22,259 nt of DNA, taken from a virus. Taxonomy: Duplodnaviria > Heunggongvirae > Uroviricota > Caudoviricetes. The translations under genes and the position numbers were made by a program. The notes beneath the pieces are model-generated. The model saw nothing but the letters and a program-made list of their open reading frames with translations. It made no database searches and was not told where the DNA came from. The DNA is taken from the IMG/VR virus record IMGVR_UViG_2703718804_000008. One strand, 5' to 3'. Below, piece by piece: positions 3,143 to 10,714 of the stretch (position 1 is the stretch's first letter; each line of letters opens with the position of its first letter).

Positions 3143-3367
3143 ATGCATACAGTTTCTGAAAATCAGTGCGGTATATACGCATTACTGCTGCAACAGGCCA
3201 GAACCGAAGCACAGGCCGACGCTGCGACGCGCTTTTCTTCTCATCTTGACGCCATGATTCTCCACATCACAAAGGCGGAGTTATCCCGCGTGGAGATAGT
3301 CGAGCTGCTCAGTCAGGAGTCGGAAAAATTTCACAATATCGGATTGTCTCGCGGGGAGGTGCTTTGA
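3143..3367 (+). CDS. Hypothetical early protein (P2 orf80 position)
   Basis: 74 aa, ATG start with GGAGAAAG upstream; stop overlaps the next start. Confidence 0.6.
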
Positions 3368-3669
3368 TGTCCTGTTCTCGTTCAATTGTATTACTGAATA
3401 ACGCCTTAAAAATCGCCGTTATGGAAAATGGCGATTTGTCTCTTATTCAACTTGGTCTTGATAAAGAAAAGCGCGACATAACTGAATCTGTTATCGCGAT
3501 TTATCAGAGCGAATTAAACCTCCTGTCTGATGTGATCAATTTACTTGTGAAACGCGCTGTATTTCACAAGCAAATTTCCTCAGTGGATGAACTGACAAAA
3601 TTAACGACAGAACTCGCCAGCTATTGCGCTGATGAATTTAAGAAACTGAACGACAAAAGGAACTGGTAA
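3367..3669 (+). CDS. Hypothetical early protein (P2 orf81 position)
   Basis: The track ORF starts at TTG 3364; the first ATG is at 3367, overlapping the upstream TGA. 100 aa. Confidence 0.6.
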   Translation: MSCSRSIVLLNNALKIAVMENGDLSLIQLGLDKEKRDITESVIAIYQSELNLLSDVINLLVKRAVFHKQISSVDELTKLTTELASYCADEFKKLNDKRNW

Positions 3670-3893: not shown

Positions 3894-4165
3894 GTATTCG
3901 TATCGAAATTGGCGAACGTTATGTCGTTACCAGTGACAGCTTTCAGTTTATTCTCCACGAGAAAAAGAGAGCGGAAAGCGGTAAAAACGCCGGTCAGGAA
4001 TGGCTGTCGGTGGTTGGTTATTACCCGAAATTAAGCCAGCTCGTTTCCGGCCTGATGCATCACGATATTCTGACCGGAAGCGCAAAGTCTTTTGCTGATT
4101 TAAACGCGCAGGTTGAGCAACTCAGCAAGCGTTGTTCAGAGGCTTTTGGCTCATATGGCCGTTAA
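3890..4165 (+). CDS. Hypothetical early protein (P2 orf83 position)
   Basis: 91 aa, ATG start overlapping the upstream stop (ATGA). Confidence 0.55.
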   Translation: MSIRIEIGERYVVTSDSFQFILHEKKRAESGKNAGQEWLSVVGYYPKLSQLVSGLMHHDILTGSAKSFADLNAQVEQLSKRCSEAFGSYGR

Positions 4166-6149
4166 AGCCTCCGGGCGTTTTGTCCCTCCGTCAGCATTTG
4201 CCGCAGGCACCGGTAAGGCGTTTACCGGTGCTTATGCATGGAACGCGCCACGCGAGGCTGTCGGGCGCGAAAGACCCCTTACACGTGACGAGATGCGTCA
4301 GGTGCAAGGTGTTTTATCCACGATTAACCGCCTGCCTTACTTTTTGCGCTCGCTGTTTACTTCACGCTATGACTACATCCGGCGCAATAAAAGCCCGGTA
4401 CACGGGTTTTATTTCCTCACATCCACTTTTCAGCGTCGTTTATGGCCGCGCATTGAGCGTGTGAATCAGCGCCATGAAATGAACACCGACGCGTCGTTGC
4501 TGTTTCTGGCAGAGCGTGACCATTATGCGCGTCTGCCGGGGATGAATGACAAGGAGCTGAAAAAGTTTGCCGCCCGTATCTCATCGCAGCTTTTCATGAT
4601 GTATGAGGAACTCTGCGATGCCTGGGTGGATGCGCATGGCGAAAAAGAATCGCTGTTTACGGATGAGGCGCAGGCGCATCTGTATGGTCATGTTGCTGGC
4701 GCTGCACGTGCTTTCAATATTTCCCCGCTTTACTGGAAAAAATACCGTAAAGGGCAGATGACCACGAGGCAGGCATATTCTGCCATTGCCCGCCTGTTTA
4801 ACGATGAGTGGTGGACTCATCAGCTTAAAGGCCAGCGTATGCGCTGGCATGAGGCGTTACTGATTGCTGTCGGGGAGGTCAATAAAGACCGTTCTCCTTA
4901 TGCCAGTAAACATGCCATTCGTGATGTGCGTGCGCGCCGCCAGGCAAATCTGGAATTTCTTAAATCGTGTGACCTTGAAAACAAGGAAACCGGCGAGCGC
5001 ATCGACCTTATCAGTAAGGTGATGGGCAGTATTTCTAATCCAGAAATTCGCCGGATGGAGCTGATGAACACCATCGCCGGTATTGAGCGTTACGCCGCCG
5101 CAGAGGGTGATGTGGGGATGTTTATCACGCTGACCGCGCCGTCAAAGTATCACCCGACACGTCAGGTCAGAAAAGGCGAAAGTAAAACCGTCCAGCTAAA
5201 TCACGGCTGGAACGATGAGGCATTTAATCCAAAGGATGCGCAGCGTTATCTCTGCCGTATCTGGAGCCTGATGCGCACGGCATTCAAGGATAATGATTTA
5301 CAGGCCTACGGTTTGCGTGTTGTTGAACCACACCACGACGGAACGCCGCACTGGCATATGATGCTTTTTTGTAATCCACGCCAGCGTAACCAGATTATTG
5401 AAATCATGCGTCGCTATGCGCTCAAAGAGGATGGCGACGAAAGAGGAGCCGCGCGAAACCGTTTTCAGGCAAAACATCTTAACCGGGGCGGTGCTGCGGG
5501 GTATATCGCAAAATACATCTCAAAAAACATCGATGGCTATGCACTGGATGGTCAGCTCGATAATGATACCGGCAGGCCGCTGAAAGATACTGCTGCGGCT
5601 GTTACCGCATGGGCGTCAACGTGGCGAATTCCGCAATTTAAAACGATTGGCCTGCCGACAATGGGGGCTTACCGTGAACTACGCAAATTGCCTCGCGGCG
5701 TCAGTATTGCTGATGAGTTTGACGAACGCGTCGAGGCTGCTCGCGCTGCCGCAGACAGTGGTGATTTTGCGTTGTATATCAGCGCGCAGGGTGGGGCAAA
5801 TGTCCCGCGCGATTGTCAGACTGTCAGGGTTGCCCGTAGCCCGTCGGATGACGTTAACGAGTACGAGGAAGAAGTCGAGAGAGTGGTCGGCATTTACGCG
5901 CCGCATCTCGGCGCGCGTCATATTCATATCACCAGAACGACGGACTGGCGCATTGTTCCGAAAGTTCCGGTCGTTGAGCCTTTGACTTTAAAAAGCGGCA
6001 TCGCCGCGCCTCGGAGTCCTGTCAATAACTGTGGAAAGCTCACCGGTGGTGATACTTCGTTACCGGCTCCCACACCTTCTGAGCACGCCGCAGCAGTGCT
6101 TAATCTGGTTGATGACGGTGTTTCGAATGGAATGACCCGGAGGTTGTGA
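4155..6149 (+). CDS. A: Rolling-circle replication initiator (P2 gpA-like HUH endonuclease)
   Basis: HUH-type motif HHDGTPHWHMMLF and two-tyrosine motif GYIAKYISKN (phiX174 gpA-like YxxKY). The track ORF opens at TTG 4113; the first ATG is 4155 (664 aa). Start uncertain. Confidence 0.9.
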   Translation: MAVKASGRFVPPSAFAAGTGKAFTGAYAWNAPREAVGRERPLTRDEMRQVQGVLSTINRLPYFLRSLFTSRYDYIRRNKSPVHGFYFLTSTFQRRLWPRIERVNQRHEMNTDASLLFLAERDHYARLPGMNDKELKKFAARISSQLFMMYEELCDAWVDAHGEKESLFTDEAQAHLYGHVAGAARAFNISPLYWKKYRKGQMTTRQAYSAIARLFNDEWWTHQLKGQRMRWHEALLIAVGEVNKDRSPYASKHAIRDVRARRQANLEFLKSCDLENKETGERIDLISKVMGSISNPEIRRMELMNTIAGIERYAAAEGDVGMFITLTAPSKYHPTRQVRKGESKTVQLNHGWNDEAFNPKDAQRYLCRIWSLMRTAFKDNDLQAYGLRVVEPHHDGTPHWHMMLFCNPRQRNQIIEIMRRYALKEDGDERGAARNRFQAKHLNRGGAAGYIAKYISKNIDGYALDGQLDNDTGRPLKDTAAAVTAWASTWRIPQFKTIGLPTMGAYRELRKLPRGVSIADEFDERVEAARAAADSGDFALYISAQGGANVPRDCQTVRVARSPSDDVNEYEEEVERVVGIYAPHLGARHIHITRTTDWRIVPKVPVVEPLTLKSGIAAPRSPVNNCGKLTGGDTSLPAPTPSEHAAAVLNLVDDGVSNGMTRRL

Positions 6150-6433
6150 GGGCGCTCAGAAGCGCATTAAAACACGGCCTGAGAAGACCAAACCGTCAGC
6201 AAAGAAACGGAAGCCCCTTAAAACCACATGAAATTGCACCATCGGCCAGACTGACCCGGTCGGAAAGAATGCAAATCACCCGTATCCGCGTTGACCTTGC
6301 TCAGAACGGTATCAGGCCGCAGCGATGGGAGCTTGAGGTGCTGGCGCGTGGGGCAACGGTAAGCTATTGTGGGGAAAAATTTACGTATCCGGTCGCTGAT
6401 GAGGGGGCGGGATTTGTAGTATGTAAATGGTGA
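6146..6433 (+). CDS. Hypothetical protein, GTG start overlapping the A stop (P2 orf91 position?)
   Basis: 95-aa ORF starting with GTG in a GTGA overlap with the A stop codon; arginine-rich; same GC-rich composition as the backbone. No motif recognised. Confidence 0.4.
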   Translation: MRALRSALKHGLRRPNRQQRNGSPLKPHEIAPSARLTRSERMQITRIRVDLAQNGIRPQRWELEVLARGATVSYCGEKFTYPVADEGAGFVVCKW

Positions 6434-6683
6434 AGATAAGATGGGTTTTTGTCTGTAACGCATTGTTTTATATGGTTATATTTGATTTTTTGTAACGTGT
6501 GTTCATGTTTTCTTTGCTATGATTCATACTACTGCTATAGATGGCTAAAGATATAGGTTGTTGCTTAAATGTATATAGATAATTAAACGCCTTAATTTTT
6601 GATGAGATGTGTCATAAAGTGGAGTCTGTATGGCATAATTTTATGGGGCATGACATTTATACCATTCTTAAAAAGGAGATTAT
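6434..6683 (+). promoter_or_regulatory. AT-rich upstream region of the cargo cassette (probable own promoter plus RBS)
   Basis: 250 bp of very AT-rich non-coding DNA; AAGGAG at 6673-6678 five nt before the ATG at 6684; TGGCATAAT (extended -10-like) at 6631-6639. No convincing -35 found. Confidence 0.3.
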
Positions 6684-8351
6684 ATGCTGATAACTTTCTC
6701 AGGACAAAATTATAAGGCATACGAGAGTTTTAAGTTGTCTTTAAAGCCATTGACAATATTATTAGGGGCAAATAGTTGTGGGAAAAGTGCATTAATTAAC
6801 TCTTTGTTGATGTTTTCTCAGTCTGTTGATTCAATGTCATTGTCTGATTCTGCTTTAAGGTTGAATGGGCCTAAAGTTGGGATGGGAGAAGCATTAAATA
6901 TAATAAAAAATAAAGATGACTCCAAAACACTTAGTTTTAGTTTTGATTTTTCTGATAATACAGTGGTTAAAAATGGCATTGATACACTGAGGAGAGAAAC
7001 TTTAGAATCATTTGCTATGATTATGCGATTCACAGTGCAAACGGTGAAAAATAATGACGCTTTGGTTACGAAAGCCAATGATTTAATAAATGAGGCTTCG
7101 AATGCGATCGTTAACTTTGACGAATTTGAGGAAGCTGAGTTAAAGGTTATCGCTGATAAGTTATGTCAATTACTTTTGCTTTTTAGGGAGGCGGGTGATA
7201 ATATCACATTTAGTCGTGCGACCTCAGAAAATTTACGCAAATTTATATATGAATGTCCATTAAAGAGAATAAAGGATTGTCTAACTAAAGTTATTTCCAT
7301 TTCAGGAAATAAATTGTCGGCTTCTAAGATAAGCTATGATTTCAAATATGATAAAAATAAAGGGGTGATAAAAGTTTCGAGGCTTGTTCTTTTAAATAAG
7401 AATGATGAAAAGATAGTTGAGCTATTACCAAAGAAGAATAATGTCGTTGTATTATCAGATGTTATCCCTCAAGAAGTGTTTAGAGGATGTCAGTCAGATA
7501 TCTTAGAAATCATCAATCCTTATTCGCTGGGACTGTTCCCTGTCAATAATGGGCGTGGTTTTTATGTTTTTTTTGGTAACTCTTATAATCCTGTTGTTAA
7601 TTTTTTATCACATGTTGTTTCTTTGGGTGTATTAATGCTTTCAAAAATGTTTGATGGTGAAAATGTTAATCACGTCAGCCCATTGAGAGCATTTCCTCAG
7701 CGATATTATCTATTAGACAAAACAGTCAATCATGCGCAGTTAAATTCTGCCGATGGATCTGAGTTAGCGGAGATCTTGAAGAAAAATACAAAAATAACAG
7801 AAAATATAAATCTTCTTCTGGCTGAATTTAATTTGGCTGTTGATATAGTTAAAGTTAATGACATAATTCATAAAATTGTTATAAACCAAGATGCTGTTAA
7901 TTTAGAGTTGACAGATGTGGGGTTTGGAATATCACAAGTATTGCCTGTCTTGGTTCAAGCTTATTTGTCACCAAAGGGTTCGATTACAATAATAGAACAA
8001 CCAGAAATACATTTGCATCCTAAAATGCAGGCATGGTTAACGGACGCATTAATTAAAATATCCATGCAAGAAAAGAAAGTATTTATTATTGAAACCCATA
8101 GCGATGCTTTAGTTAGACGAATTAGATTAAGAATTGTTGATGAATCGAGTGAACTTACAGAGGATCATGTTGCAATCTACCATCTTGAGCGCGATGAAGA
8201 GGGAACATCAACATTGCTGAATAGGGTGGCTGTAAATTCTGATGGAGATATCACATGGCCAAATGAATTTATGGATGTTGAGATTCAGGATACAATTAGA
8301 ATACAGGAGTTAAAGATACAGAAAATAATGAACTCAAAGGGGGTTCATTGA
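6684..8351 (+). CDS. OLD/ABC-type ATPase (AAA_15/AAA_21-like), candidate defence-system sensor/motor
   Basis: 555 aa. Walker A GANSCGKS at residues 28-35; Walker B/D-loop IIEQPEIHLHP at ~436-446; H-loop FIIETHSD at ~465-472. About 400 aa separate Walker A and B. Very AT-rich. Confidence 0.85.
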   Translation: MLITFSGQNYKAYESFKLSLKPLTILLGANSCGKSALINSLLMFSQSVDSMSLSDSALRLNGPKVGMGEALNIIKNKDDSKTLSFSFDFSDNTVVKNGIDTLRRETLESFAMIMRFTVQTVKNNDALVTKANDLINEASNAIVNFDEFEEAELKVIADKLCQLLLLFREAGDNITFSRATSENLRKFIYECPLKRIKDCLTKVISISGNKLSASKISYDFKYDKNKGVIKVSRLVLLNKNDEKIVELLPKKNNVVVLSDVIPQEVFRGCQSDILEIINPYSLGLFPVNNGRGFYVFFGNSYNPVVNFLSHVVSLGVLMLSKMFDGENVNHVSPLRAFPQRYYLLDKTVNHAQLNSADGSELAEILKKNTKITENINLLLAEFNLAVDIVKVNDIIHKIVINQDAVNLELTDVGFGISQVLPVLVQAYLSPKGSITIIEQPEIHLHPKMQAWLTDALIKISMQEKKVFIIETHSDALVRRIRLRIVDESSELTEDHVAIYHLERDEEGTSTLLNRVAVNSDGDITWPNEFMDVEIQDTIRIQELKIQKIMNSKGVH

Positions 8352-8352
8352 C

Positions 8353-9354
8353 ATGTATTGTGCAGTGTGTTTGTGTCCTGATTTTGTTGCGGCTAATATT
8401 TCTGATATTAATTTATTTAGTGGTTTTTTTATTGGAACCATTGTTAATGGTGAAAATCAGTTGATTTTAGATGCTGATGAAAAAATCCGTTTGGGCTATT
8501 TGAAATCTTGTAAAAATAACAAGGATTCTTTTTATCTGCTTCAGAAATGGGAGGCTGAATTATCTAAAGCTTCTTCAGGTAAAATATTGCTTGCACCAGT
8601 GAGTAATAGTACTGATGATATTAAGGATATAGTTGTTTGTGCAGTTGCTAACGCAGCTACCACCTTTGATAAACATATTGTGGTATTAGACAATAATAGT
8701 TACTCTGGATATGTTGATGAATTAGTTAGGCAAAGAGTTAATTTGTTAAATCTTAATAGTATAAGTTTAATATCAAAGGAGGATAGGGTGCAGCGTCCTT
8801 TGAATTTTATAAAGTTTGATAGCGATTTGTCTTGGGTGCTTCAAAGACTGGGGCGACGCTCTGCTAAAGGATATGGCGAAGATGATTTTAATGATTTTAT
8901 ACGAGATATGTTATTAGCTAAAAATTATGAGGTAAAAGATCAAACTCGAGAAGGAGAGTCTCAATCGGGGAAAAAAGCCGGTGAGTTAGATCTTGTTATT
9001 GAAGATAGAGGAGAACTGTTTGCTATAATAGAAGCCTTGATTTTAAACTCTTTAGATCAAGCTAACATATTAAAGCATTATTCAAAGTTAATTGATAACT
9101 ATAATCCTATTCATGTCAAAAGGTTGTTTTTAATTGCTTATTATACAGGTGCAAAATTCGATGCCTGGTGTGAAAGATATATTGAGTATCTAAAGGGGAT
9201 TACTTCGGTAGATATTGGTGTGGAATCTCATCAGATAGTTGAGGTTAAAGAAGTGGATACCCCGTACATAGGCTTAAGAAAAATTGAACATCATTTTAGA
9301 TATGCGGGGGAGCACTATTTTTGTATCCATTATGCAGTCAAAATGGCTCGGTGA
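8353..9354 (+). CDS. Hypothetical partner protein of the ATPase (candidate effector)
   Basis: 333 aa; ATG one nt after the ATPase stop, so translationally coupled; same AT-rich composition. Segment ELDLVIEDRGELFAIIEAL is loosely PD-(D/E)xK-like but lacks the canonical Lys. No confident domain call. Confidence 0.75.
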   Translation: MYCAVCLCPDFVAANISDINLFSGFFIGTIVNGENQLILDADEKIRLGYLKSCKNNKDSFYLLQKWEAELSKASSGKILLAPVSNSTDDIKDIVVCAVANAATTFDKHIVVLDNNSYSGYVDELVRQRVNLLNLNSISLISKEDRVQRPLNFIKFDSDLSWVLQRLGRRSAKGYGEDDFNDFIRDMLLAKNYEVKDQTREGESQSGKKAGELDLVIEDRGELFAIIEALILNSLDQANILKHYSKLIDNYNPIHVKRLFLIAYYTGAKFDAWCERYIEYLKGITSVDIGVESHQIVEVKEVDTPYIGLRKIEHHFRYAGEHYFCIHYAVKMAR

Positions 9355-9366
9355 TGTTTAAGATGA

Positions 9367-9392
9367 ATGCACCTATAGGGTGCATCATTTTG
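9367..9392 (+). terminator. Putative intrinsic terminator of the cargo operon
   Basis: Hairpin ATGCACC-TATAG-GGTGCAT (7-bp stem) followed by CATTTTGCATGTTT, 13 nt after the partner gene stop. AT-rich stem, so weak. Confidence 0.35.
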
Positions 9393-9491
9393 CATGTTTA
9401 AATATGTTCTCTATGTATGTGCGCTAGGCTTGACTGGCGCGCTTATACTATGTTTACGCAACTGCATTAAAACTGACCCACGAAGCGGGCG

Positions 9492-9510
9492 GGCGAGGCG
9501 GGGAAAGCAC
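9492..9510. other. cos: cos site (19-nt cohesive-end sequence, P2-type)
   Basis: GGCGAGGCGGGGAAAGCAC matches my recollection of the P2 cohesive end; it lies between the early region and Q, as in P2. Confidence 0.55.
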
Positions 9511-9652
9511 TGCGCGCTGGCGGTGGTGCTGATTTTATTTTTTCAGCGTCTGAGCGCGTCGTGACGGCGTTTAGATTGTTCGCCGGGGCGTTGGTGTGTC
9601 TGCGGGATTTTTTGTGCGGTGATGAGCGTGTGAGGGCGTGATGACGGGGTGT

Positions 9653-9676
9653 AAAAAAGCCGCCCGCAGGCGGCGA
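9653..9676 (-). terminator. Intrinsic terminator downstream of Q (minus strand)
   Basis: GC-rich hairpin GCCGCC-CGCA-GGCGGC at 9659-9674, followed on the minus strand by a run of six T (A6 at 9653-9658 on plus), a few nt past the Q stop. Confidence 0.5.
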
Positions 9677-9679
9677 TGT

Positions 9680-10714
9680 TCAGCCGTTGTCAGTGTCCAG
9701 TGAGTAGTTTTTAAAGCGGATGACCTCCTGACCGAGCCAGCCGTTTATCTCGCGGATCCTGTCCTGTAACGGGATAAGCTCATTGCGGACAAAGACCTTT
9801 GCCACTTTCTCAATATCACCCAGCGACCCGACGTTCTCCGGCTTGCCGCCCATCAACTGAAAGGGGATGCGGTGCGCGTCCAGCAGGTCAGCGGCGCTGG
9901 ATTTTTTGATATTAAAAAAATCGTCCTTCGTTGCCACTTCACTGAGGGGGATAATTTTAATGCCGTCGGCTTTCCCCTGCGGGGCATAGAGAAACAGATT
10001 TTTAAAGTTATTGCGGCCTTTCGACTTCACCATGTTTTCGCGAAGCATTTCGATATCGTTGCGATCCTGCACGGCATCGGTGACGTACATGATGTATCCG
10101 GCATGTGCGCCGTTTTCGTAATACTTGCGGCGGAACAGCGTGGCCGACTCATTCAGCCAGGCAGAGTTAAGGGCGCTGAGATATTCCGGCAGGCCGTACA
10201 GCTCCTGATTAATATCAGGCTCCAGCAGATGAAACACGGAGCCGGGCGCGAAGGCTGTCGGCTCGTTGAAGGACGGCACCCACCAGTAAACATCCTCCTC
10301 CACGCCACGACGGGTATATTTGGCCGGTGAGGTTTCCAGTCTGATGACCTTACCGGTGGTGCTGTAACGCTTTTCCAGAAACGCATTACCGAACACCAGA
10401 AAATCCAGCACAAAGCGGCTGAAATCCTGCTGGGAAAGCCACGGGTGCGGGATAAACGTTGAAGCCAGAATATTACGTTTGACGTAAATCGGTGAGCTGT
10501 GATGCACGGCAGCACGCAGACTTTTTGCCAGACCGGTAAAGCTGACCGGTGGCTCATACCATCTGCCGTTACTGATGCACTCGACGTAATCCAGAATATC
10601 ACGGCGGTCGAGTACCGGCACCGGCTCACCAAAGGTGAATGCCTCCATTTTCGGGGCGCTGGCAGTCATTGTTTTCACCGCTGGCTGCGGTGTTTTCCCT
10701 TTTTTCTTACTCAT
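9680..10714 (-). CDS. Q: Portal protein (P2 gpQ-like)
   Basis: 344 aa, ATG start; start overlaps the P stop (ATGA); first gene after cos on the minus strand. Confidence 0.95.
   Translation of the reverse strand: MSKKKGKTPQPAVKTMTASAPKMEAFTFGEPVPVLDRRDILDYVECISNGRWYEPPVSFTGLAKSLRAAVHHSSPIYVKRNILASTFIPHPWLSQQDFSRFVLDFLVFGNAFLEKRYSTTGKVIRLETSPAKYTRRGVEEDVYWWVPSFNEPTAFAPGSVFHLLEPDINQELYGLPEYLSALNSAWLNESATLFRRKYYENGAHAGYIMYVTDAVQDRNDIEMLRENMVKSKGRNNFKNLFLYAPQGKADGIKIIPLSEVATKDDFFNIKKSSAADLLDAHRIPFQLMGGKPENVGSLGDIEKVAKVFVRNELIPLQDRIREINGWLGQEVIRFKNYSLDTDNG

Follow-up and report, generated by a model that had tools for sequence, protein, structure and literature searches.

A putative anti-phage module pairing a nuclease-less OLD-type ABC ATPase with a PIN-like/PD-(D/E)xK protein in a P2-like prophage of Escherichia coli

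The question raised by this locus is what an ATP-binding cassette (ABC) ATPase lacking any nuclease domain of its own contributes to the prophage carrying it, and which protein serves as its effector. The locus lies in the window, as we call the whole stretch of DNA analyzed (22,259 nucleotides (nt); IMG/VR record IMGVR_UViG_2703718804_000008), which is a P2-like prophage of Escherichia coli showing 100% identity to strain ARS-C301 and encoding, by Pfam matches, the replication endonuclease gpA as well as an integrase, a terminase and a portal protein. The ATPase (ORF555) and the protein encoded directly downstream (ORF333) quite probably form a two-gene anti-phage defence module, which is carried as cargo in the gpA-cos-gpQ hotspot of P2-like phages (cos, cohesive end) and would act by the mechanism proposed below. 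The two open reading frames (ORFs) and the parts of their products on which the argument depends are as follows (positions in the window; lengths in amino acids, aa):

6684-8351, + strand: OLD-type ABC ATPase ORF555, 555 aa, WP_062878015.1, an ATG-to-TGA ORF, NsnB/HEC-03-like (HEC-03, Hma-embedded candidate 03), without a nuclease domain
6765-6788, + strand: Walker A motif GANSCGKS, residues 28-35
6960-7643, + strand: variable insert, about residues 93-320, with three helices (19-27 residues each), a sheet of four strands (215-257) and a helix (303-323), from the AlphaFold2 (AF2) model
7680-7709, + strand: R-loop PLRAFPQRYY, residues 333-342, with Arg replacing the Q-loop Gln
7920-7937, + strand: equivalent of the signature motif, GFGISQ, residues 413-418, with GxG instead of SGG
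7989-8021, + strand: Walker B and D-loop region IIEQPEIHLHP, residues 436-446
8091-8105, + strand: H-loop ETHSD, residues 470-474
8106-8348, + strand: C-terminal tail, residues 475-555, consisting of a helix, a beta-hairpin and a terminal helix (534-551), from the AF2 model
8353-9354, + strand: partner protein ORF333, 333 aa, WP_062878016.1, starting 1 nt after the ATPase stop codon
8353-8787, + strand: N-terminal PIN-like domain of the partner, residues 1-145, degenerate
8788-9351, + strand: C-terminal PD-(D/E)xK (restriction-endonuclease-like) nuclease domain of the partner, residues 146-333

The ATPase and its downstream partner

The Walker A, Walker B/D-loop and H-loop motifs, which an earlier note based on the sequence alone had read in ORF555 with about 400 residues between the two Walker motifs, are present exactly as described there, K34 and E438 being 404 residues apart. 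These motifs are not spurious: the Pfam profile AAA_15 matches residues 8-477 over its whole length (E = 2e-23, 84 bits versus a cut-off of 32), and residues G28, N30, S31, G33, K34, and S35, as well as E438, Q439, P440, E441, H443, L444, P446, E470, H472, and S473, were found to be invariant in 55 homologues, down to 38% identity. The best PADLOC matches were those with NsnB (2e-52), the HEC-03 ATPase model (8e-42), and PDC-M55A (4.5e-41). Only 81 residues follow the ETHSD motif and, as the same note had argued, they leave no room for a C-terminal TOPRIM domain: in the AF2 monomer model, the ABC head is followed by the hairpin-and-helix tail and no nuclease fold is present, and no TOPRIM was detected in the Pfam scan, the model or the fold searches. 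The structure searches place ORF555 near SMC, Rad50, PtuA, Eco8 OLD, AriA, and GajA.

The insert separating the Walker motifs is real and long, but the dimerization or coiled-coil insert expected by analogy with other ABC ATPases was only partly recovered. Its helices (93-119, 125-143, and 150-173) do not exceed 27 residues and are accompanied by the beta-sheet at 215-257, and a long coiled coil of the SMC/Rad50 type is not present in the AF2 model. This insert is the least conserved part of the ATPase family consensus, takes up most of the amino acid changes between alleles, and is a candidate sensing or oligomerization surface. The hairpin of the tail contains a conserved block (G521/W525/P526/F529/D531), and the tail itself is DUF3696-like, the match being below the threshold in ORF555 (E = 0.0096), while precomputed DUF3696 matches exist in several homologues; by analogy, we propose that the tail might clamp the PIN-like domain of the partner. 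The R-loop block PLRAFPQRYYLLDK (window positions 7683-7757, residues 334-358) is invariant. It falls mostly within the sole long low-confidence stretch of the monomer model (residues 335-358, with a pLDDT, the local confidence score of the model, below 50), and its ordering may require the complex or the dimer with bound ATP.

The Walker B region shows an unusual residue: Gln439 in IIEQPE is aligned with the second Glu of EEPE in the Thermus OLD protein, that is, with the canonical position of the catalytic Glu. The motif E-Q-P-E-x-H-L-H-P is nearly invariant in 83 loci ranging from Gammaproteobacteria to Archaea, and was not among the patterns used for retrieving them. In other ABC ATPases, the replacement of Glu by Gln at the catalytic position allows ATP binding and blocks hydrolysis. 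Since Gln occupies this position in ORF555, the protein probably acts as a switch that binds ATP, or as a slow hydrolase, and not as a motor.

The effector had been predicted to be the downstream protein acting in trans, and this view is supported by the structure model of ORF333, in which a PD-(D/E)xK nuclease domain was recognized. Apart from a weak match with PDDEXK_4, searches of Pfam, PADLOC, NCBIfam, PHROGs, and the PDB with ORF333 gave no sequence match, either single or profile, even at E = 10; the layout of the protein, consisting of a PIN-like and a PD-(D/E)xK domain, is that of a confident structure model. The partner family is small (49 clusters at 90% identity) and its members are all about 331-336 aa long. 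At the canonical acidic positions of the PIN fold, which read D-D-E-D-D in 31 stand-alone partners, ORF333 has C8-D40-G48-D92-N114: Cys replaces the beta1 Asp, Gly the Glu, and Asn the Asp at position 114, and D40 and D92 are kept. In the partner family, the beta1 position carries Cys or Ser, position 48 is not conserved and D40 is invariant; Asn114 is invariant in the 46-sequence family alignment and differs in two more distant loci. We infer from these substitutions that the PIN-like domain is catalytically inactive.

The C-terminal domain shows the core alpha-beta-beta-beta-alpha-beta with conserved acidic residues on beta2 and beta3, in keeping with the PD-(D/E)xK fold. Its conserved residues, which are invariant or nearly so in the partner family and in the distant relatives, include E176, N180, Q197, S203, E211, D213, E227, H242, and K245. 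The usual beta3 lysine of the (D/E)xK motif is absent, the motif being E227-A-L/M, and the conserved K245 is located on the next helix. Enzymes of the BamHI type likewise lack this lysine. An exhaustive profile search with this domain yielded 1,109 representatives, many of which are located at the C-terminus of much larger proteins. Among the 63 larger proteins scanned, 13-15 are Roc-COR GTPases with leucine-rich repeats (LRRs), and others include nSTAND3, AbiTii, and pentapeptide-repeat proteins; the best 25 of the 40 Pfam families listed for these 63 proteins include no PD-(D/E)xK family. To judge from this distribution, the module appears to behave as a mobile effector module of conflict systems, and it seems to constitute an unnamed family of effectors used by NLR-like immune proteins of bacteria. 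In P0191, P0214, P0265, P0268, and others, it ends Roc-COR GTPase/LRR proteins that are about 900-1,700 aa long, as well as nSTAND3 and AbiTii proteins, and it is covered by none of the Pfam families listed for them.

Linkage, genomic setting and distant relatives

The genes are translationally coupled, are inherited together and evolve under purifying selection. When one genome per species was scanned, all 10 loci carrying a close ATPase were found to have the fused partner of about 333 aa, with a gap of -16 to +2 nt between the genes, in differing genomic contexts. In Serratia, P. fluorescens, and a Pseudomonas prophage, the ATPase gene is directly followed by a partner homologue (36-42% identity) in unrelated surroundings, and the pair also occurs outside phages, in chromosomal islands. 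The ratio of nonsynonymous to synonymous substitution rates (dN/dS) between the window and an E. coli allele with 88% identity was estimated at 0.047 in the ATPase and at 0.14 in the partner (0.10 for its C-domain and 0.19 for its N-domain), and 29 of the 31 amino acid differences in the ATPase are located in residues 1-300. This allele has a database entry under prophage P2-EC5 (AM157364.1), in which it is labelled "ORF555 and ORF333, hypothetical proteins". The cassette is rare, six of 5,426 complete E. coli genomes containing it, although the exact proteins occur on hundreds of contigs.

Two carriers show particular arrangements. In Serratia marcescens (loci L002-L004, positions 5500-9700), a cassette with 79% identity adjoins a gene encoding an Ogr/Delta-type zinc finger near rpoD-dnaG, and no further phage genes were called in the 13.7-kb locus; what is left there may derive from an element of the P2 or P4 type. 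In E. coli 7CC (NZ_CM137006.1), one of the six carriers, the match to positions 6100-9700 is split into two pieces, the distance between which exceeds that in the window by about 1.26 kb, and the cassette region has an annotated transposase of the IS3 family, which suggests that an insertion sequence was inserted in or beside the module.

In the window, gpA and the portal gene gpQ are separated by an island measuring some 3 kb (roughly 6434-9445), which the pair occupies, with a GC content of 33% as compared with 51% for the window. The two genes, both on the + strand, make up the whole gene content of this island, and the similarity to other P2-like phages starts again at about 9445-9458. The remaining features of the island and its boundaries are the following:

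6434-6683, + strand: AT-rich intergenic leader at the left edge of the low-GC island, where the GC fraction drops from 0.53 to 0.32
6674-6678, + strand: ribosome-binding site AGGAG of the ATPase gene (sequence reading)
8339-8343, + strand: ribosome-binding site GGGGG of the partner gene
9367-9385, + strand: terminator-like hairpin with a T-rich tail, 13 nt past the partner stop codon
9492-9510, + strand: GGCGAGGCGGGGAAAGCAC, an exact copy about 140 nt past the partner stop codon, the right-hand boundary of the hotspot

The promoter of the cassette was not located, since no sigma-70-like site passed a simple scan of the 250-nt leader (6434-6683). At the other end, the exact match to GGCGAGGCGGGGAAAGCAC, none being expected by chance, corresponds to the 19-nt cohesive end of P2, and the cargo would therefore directly abut cos, as in the P2 and P4 hotspots. 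Its position next to gpQ is consistent with the published description of the hotspot (PMC9122126). The gpA-cos-gpQ interval is a documented defence hotspot of P2-like phages, in which P2 itself carries old and tin (PMC9122126), and different cargo occupies the same site in thousands of other P2-like prophages of E. coli. In the hotspot table of the same 2022 paper, the cassette is entered as "AAA_15/AAA_21 + hypothetical"; no functional test of it was found in two papers on the P2/P4 hotspots (2022 and 2026), the earlier of which only catalogues it (PMC9122126).

The prophage surrounding the cassette shows signs of decay. The gpA gene is split into a 678-aa ORF (4113-6149) and a 95-aa ORF (6146-6433), the product of which matches the C-terminus of the nicking protein. 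RefSeq flags gpA as frameshifted and the DUF5405 gene (3364-3669) as having an internal stop. The host prophage is probably decaying while the defence cassette stays intact.

In more distant members of the ATPase clade (Bacteroidota, Cyanobacteria, Myxococcota, Chloroflexota, and Archaea), the ATPase gene is followed by a tightly coupled gene encoding a protein of about 140-200 aa. The hidden Markov model (HMM) of the partner N-domain finds these short proteins (2.7e-12, 1e-6, and, in the archaeal case, 8e-5), and that of the C-domain finds only the fused partners of Gammaproteobacteria. Matches with the PADLOC PIN model of HEC-03 were obtained for 28 of 68 downstream proteins (best 7e-67), and with NsnC for four of them. 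The beta1 Asp is kept in none of the 13 fused proteins, versus 32 of the 50 short ones. The prediction that degeneration of the PIN domain tracks the fusion of an effector held only in part, since the Bacteroidota have short degenerate partners without a fused effector. The ATPases of this phylum are the nearest to that of the window outside Gammaproteobacteria. No conserved third gene of appreciable size was found in the Bacteroidota loci, in which only a small overlapping ORF (73-112 aa) occurs at five loci (L018, L022, L028, L033, and L034), four of the five being weakly similar to each other. At loci L014-L034 (Bacteroidota and others), the short partners (about 140-230 aa) are without the canonical acidic set, reading for example S-D-I-E-H. 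In two Chryseobacterium loci (L015, 6682-7629; L025, 6685-7632), the 315-aa partners combine a degenerate PIN-like N-domain with a different C-terminal domain, and effector swapping of the NsnC type therefore seems to be present in two-gene systems too.

The upstream neighbours of the ATPase genes, scanned at 58 related loci, are heterogeneous and include type III CRISPR, type IIG restriction-modification (RM), BREX, and Dnd genes. DUF262/NsnA is not among the upstream families listed (the best 25 by member count in the 58 loci), and at most one locus might have it. Because of this heterogeneity and of the absence of DUF262/NsnA from these families, the unit common to the clade is an ATPase together with a PIN-fold protein and does not depend on NsnA. 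Of the 58 upstream proteins, three match the RAMP, Cmr6, and Csm3 models, which suggests that some of the ATPase-partner modules sit beside type III CRISPR genes. The likely candidates are the proteins of 645-674 aa encoded immediately upstream of the ATPase in the cyanobacterial loci L043 (1931-3952), L049 (1958-3925), and L054 (2035-3969).

Proposed mechanism and alternatives

By analogy with the characterized systems, the module most likely works as follows. The ATPase would form nucleotide-dependent dimers or tetramers by way of its ABC heads, and its C-terminal hairpin-and-helix tails, acting in pairs, would hold the partner by the catalytically degenerate PIN-like domain. The variable insert would sense a phage cue: since there is no DNA sensor of the NsnA type, the ATPase itself would have to be the sensor, as in PARIS, HEC-03, and WonAB. 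The resulting change in its nucleotide state would activate or release the partner nuclease, which would cut phage or host nucleic acid (DNA or RNA), so that the infection would be aborted. A bolder reading, which we regard as possible rather than probable, is that the degenerate PIN domain is the fossil of an effector of the HEC-03 type, kept only as a docking piece for the grip of the ATPase tails after a mobile PD-(D/E)xK domain, found elsewhere in Roc-COR and STAND immune proteins of bacteria, had taken over as the effector. The module would then be a minimal, NsnA-less Menshen linking HEC-03 and Menshen in one series, and its ATPase, locked in a manner resembling an E-to-Q substitution, would be an ATP-gated phage sensor.

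Several points weigh against this picture. The geometry of the clamp is borrowed from the predictions made for Menshen; the short PIN-like partners of the Bacteroidota are equally degenerate and have no visible fused effector, so that either degenerate PIN domains still act or a piece is missing from the picture; and the gpA gene of the host prophage being frameshifted, expression of the cassette in the strain is not guaranteed. It is because of the Bacteroidota partners that the inactivity of the PIN-like domain is put forward together with its rival, according to which this domain is a working nuclease (an RNase, as in HEC-03) and the C-domain serves for nucleic-acid binding or regulation. 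The ancestral partner of the ATPase clade, a stand-alone PIN protein with the full acidic set in 31 loci, is in line with that rival, as are the invariance of D40 and the presence of D92 in ORF333, and the Bacteroidota proteins would then be degenerate versions that may still act. In the ORF333 family, however, the beta1 Asp has become Cys or Ser, position 114 is Asn and position 48 is not conserved, whereas the C-domain is richer in invariant acidic and polar residues than the PIN-like domain, evolves more slowly (dN/dS 0.10 versus 0.19), and is used alone as a terminal module in other conflict proteins. We therefore regard a working PIN nuclease as unlikely.

The pair might also be a toxin-antitoxin-like module maintaining the prophage without any sensing, in which the nuclease is a constitutive toxin that the ATPase only sequesters. 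The genes are indeed tightly coupled and carried by a mobile element, the nuclease module looks autonomous, and the Pfam description of AAA_21 mentions a putative AbiEii toxin of a type IV toxin-antitoxin system. This explanation seems improbable, since the tested analogues need the ATPase for their activity (HEC-03 depends on both of its genes, WonB shows no toxicity unless WonA is active, and deletion of ariA is not toxic), and the complete nucleotide-binding site and the variable insert conserved in the ATPase are more than a plug requires. Least credible of all is a role outside defence, with a Rad50/SbcC-like ATPase and a nuclease serving the replication, recombination or packaging of the phage itself. 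The proximity of the cassette to a replication gene and to cos, and the presence of the SMC and Rad50 heads among the nearest solved folds of ORF555, are what speaks for it. Among the 5,426 complete E. coli genomes, however, only the six mentioned above have the cassette, thousands of P2-like prophages having other cargo at the site, its GC content is foreign, and the same pair is found in chromosomal islands outside phages; in addition, CRISPR, RM, BREX, and Dnd genes adjoin the distant relatives, a long coiled coil is missing from the model, and the best family matches are defence ATPases. The two-gene defence module is the reading we prefer.

OLD-type ABC ATPases with separate nucleases are among the largest groups of anti-phage systems, and the way in which the effector is held and triggered has been solved for few of them. 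The present module provides a compact E. coli test case in its natural phage context, and it raises the questions of whether a degenerate PIN domain serves this clade of ATPases generally as an adaptor, whether the natural Gln makes the ATPase a switch and not a motor, and whether the PD-(D/E)xK module common to Roc-COR/STAND proteins is a DNase or a translation inhibitor like WonB. As PADLOC-DB v2.0.0 matches the ATPase and not the partner, the pair, though found in hundreds of E. coli assemblies, would escape a tool requiring the two components together. To a specialist, a system of this sort is no surprise at such a locus; the noteworthy points are the architecture of the partner, the Gln that naturally replaces Glu in Walker B, and the connection that the module makes between Menshen and HEC-03.

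Comparison with known systems

An OLD-type ABC ATPase associated with an HNH, PD-(D/E)xK or PIN nuclease acting in trans is an established theme, and the module can be compared with several systems built on this plan. Neither the kinship with HEC-03 and Menshen, nor the Gln of Walker B, nor the putative PIN-like docking domain had been noticed in the earlier note. HEC-03 consists of an ABC ATPase and a VapC-like PIN protein, reduces plaquing by coliphages, and requires both genes (Payne et al., 2024; bioRxiv 10.1101/2024.01.29.577857). The likeness lies in the two adjacent genes, one of which encodes a nuclease-less ABC ATPase and the other a PIN-fold protein, a third conserved gene being absent. 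ORF333, however, is unmatched by the HEC-03 PIN model at E = 10, lacks the beta1 Asp, E48, and D114, and has an extra 188-residue PD-(D/E)xK domain which is not present in HEC-03, while ORF555 is about 100 residues longer than most ATPases of the HEC-03 type. With its unrecognized and degenerate partner, the module is not detectable as HEC-03. In PADLOC-DB v2.0.0 (PDLC04147/PDLC04148), HEC-03B matches the ATPase and HEC-03A the small PIN proteins, and the naming in the preprint text is the opposite, so that database and preprint seem to use the A and B labels in reverse.

In Menshen (Millman et al., 2022; Li et al., 2025), the tail of NsnB is of the DUF3696 type, and the protein shows an R-loop in which Arg replaces the Q-loop Gln, GxG instead of SGG, and an E-N Walker B; NsnC combines an inactive PIN domain with a nuclease, and 15 families of NsnC effectors have been described (PMC12065111). 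AlphaFold3 models of NsnB4-NsnC2 place the tails around the PIN domain, and a related arrangement exists in Septu (PMC12065111). ORF555 shows similar features, namely PLRAFPQRYY, GFGISQ, the DUF3696-like terminal helix 534-551, and E-Q where NsnB has E-N. ORF333 resembles NsnC in its fold and in the degeneration of its residues, with a PIN-like N-domain followed by a C-terminal nuclease, but the PADLOC NsnC model misses it and PD-(D/E)xK is not among the 15 effector families. The module also differs from Menshen in having no gene for NsnA (ParB-DUF262 plus ParBDB), the cassette being bounded by gpA and cos/gpQ with no further ORF, and full membership of Menshen was rejected for lack of NsnA.

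WonAB is a prophage-borne pair in which an OLD-ABC ATPase is accompanied by a PD-(D/E)xK nuclease that acts in trans; it mediates abortive infection, for which the ATPase motifs and the nuclease lysine are needed, and WonB, which is not toxic unless active WonA is present, stops translation without degrading the chromosome (PMC12137116). In its architecture, the present module shares with WonAB and PD-T4-4 an OLD-type ABC ATPase with a separate PD-(D/E)xK nuclease encoded directly downstream on a prophage or island. The difference, by comparison of the descriptions, is that WonB and PD-T4-4_B are described only as PD-(D/E)xK folds, with no PIN-like domain mentioned. ORF555 matches PD-T4-4_A weakly (3e-9, residues 429-505), and ORF333 has no match with PD-T4-4_B. 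With the OLD proteins (P2 Old, Class 1 and Class 2 OLD) and GajA, ORF555 has in common the OLD-type head and the E-x-P-E-x-x-L-H-P motif, as well as the hotspot occupied by P2 old, but it lacks the C-terminal TOPRIM and has Gln at the position of the catalytic Glu. Membership of OLD/Gabija was rejected for lack of a TOPRIM, that of PARIS because ORF333 is a PIN-like plus PD-(D/E)xK protein and not DUF4435/TOPRIM as in AriB, and that of Septu/PtuAB (and of the retron PtuA/PtuB) because no HNH was found in ORF333.

The module thus appears to be an uncharacterized, NsnA-less defence module resembling HEC-03 and the NsnBC pair of Menshen, and a variant of the known ATPase-plus-nuclease systems: its ATPase is of the same type as those of HEC-03 and NsnB, the plan of its partner resembles that of NsnC, and the chemistry of its effector would be that of WonAB and PD-T4-4.

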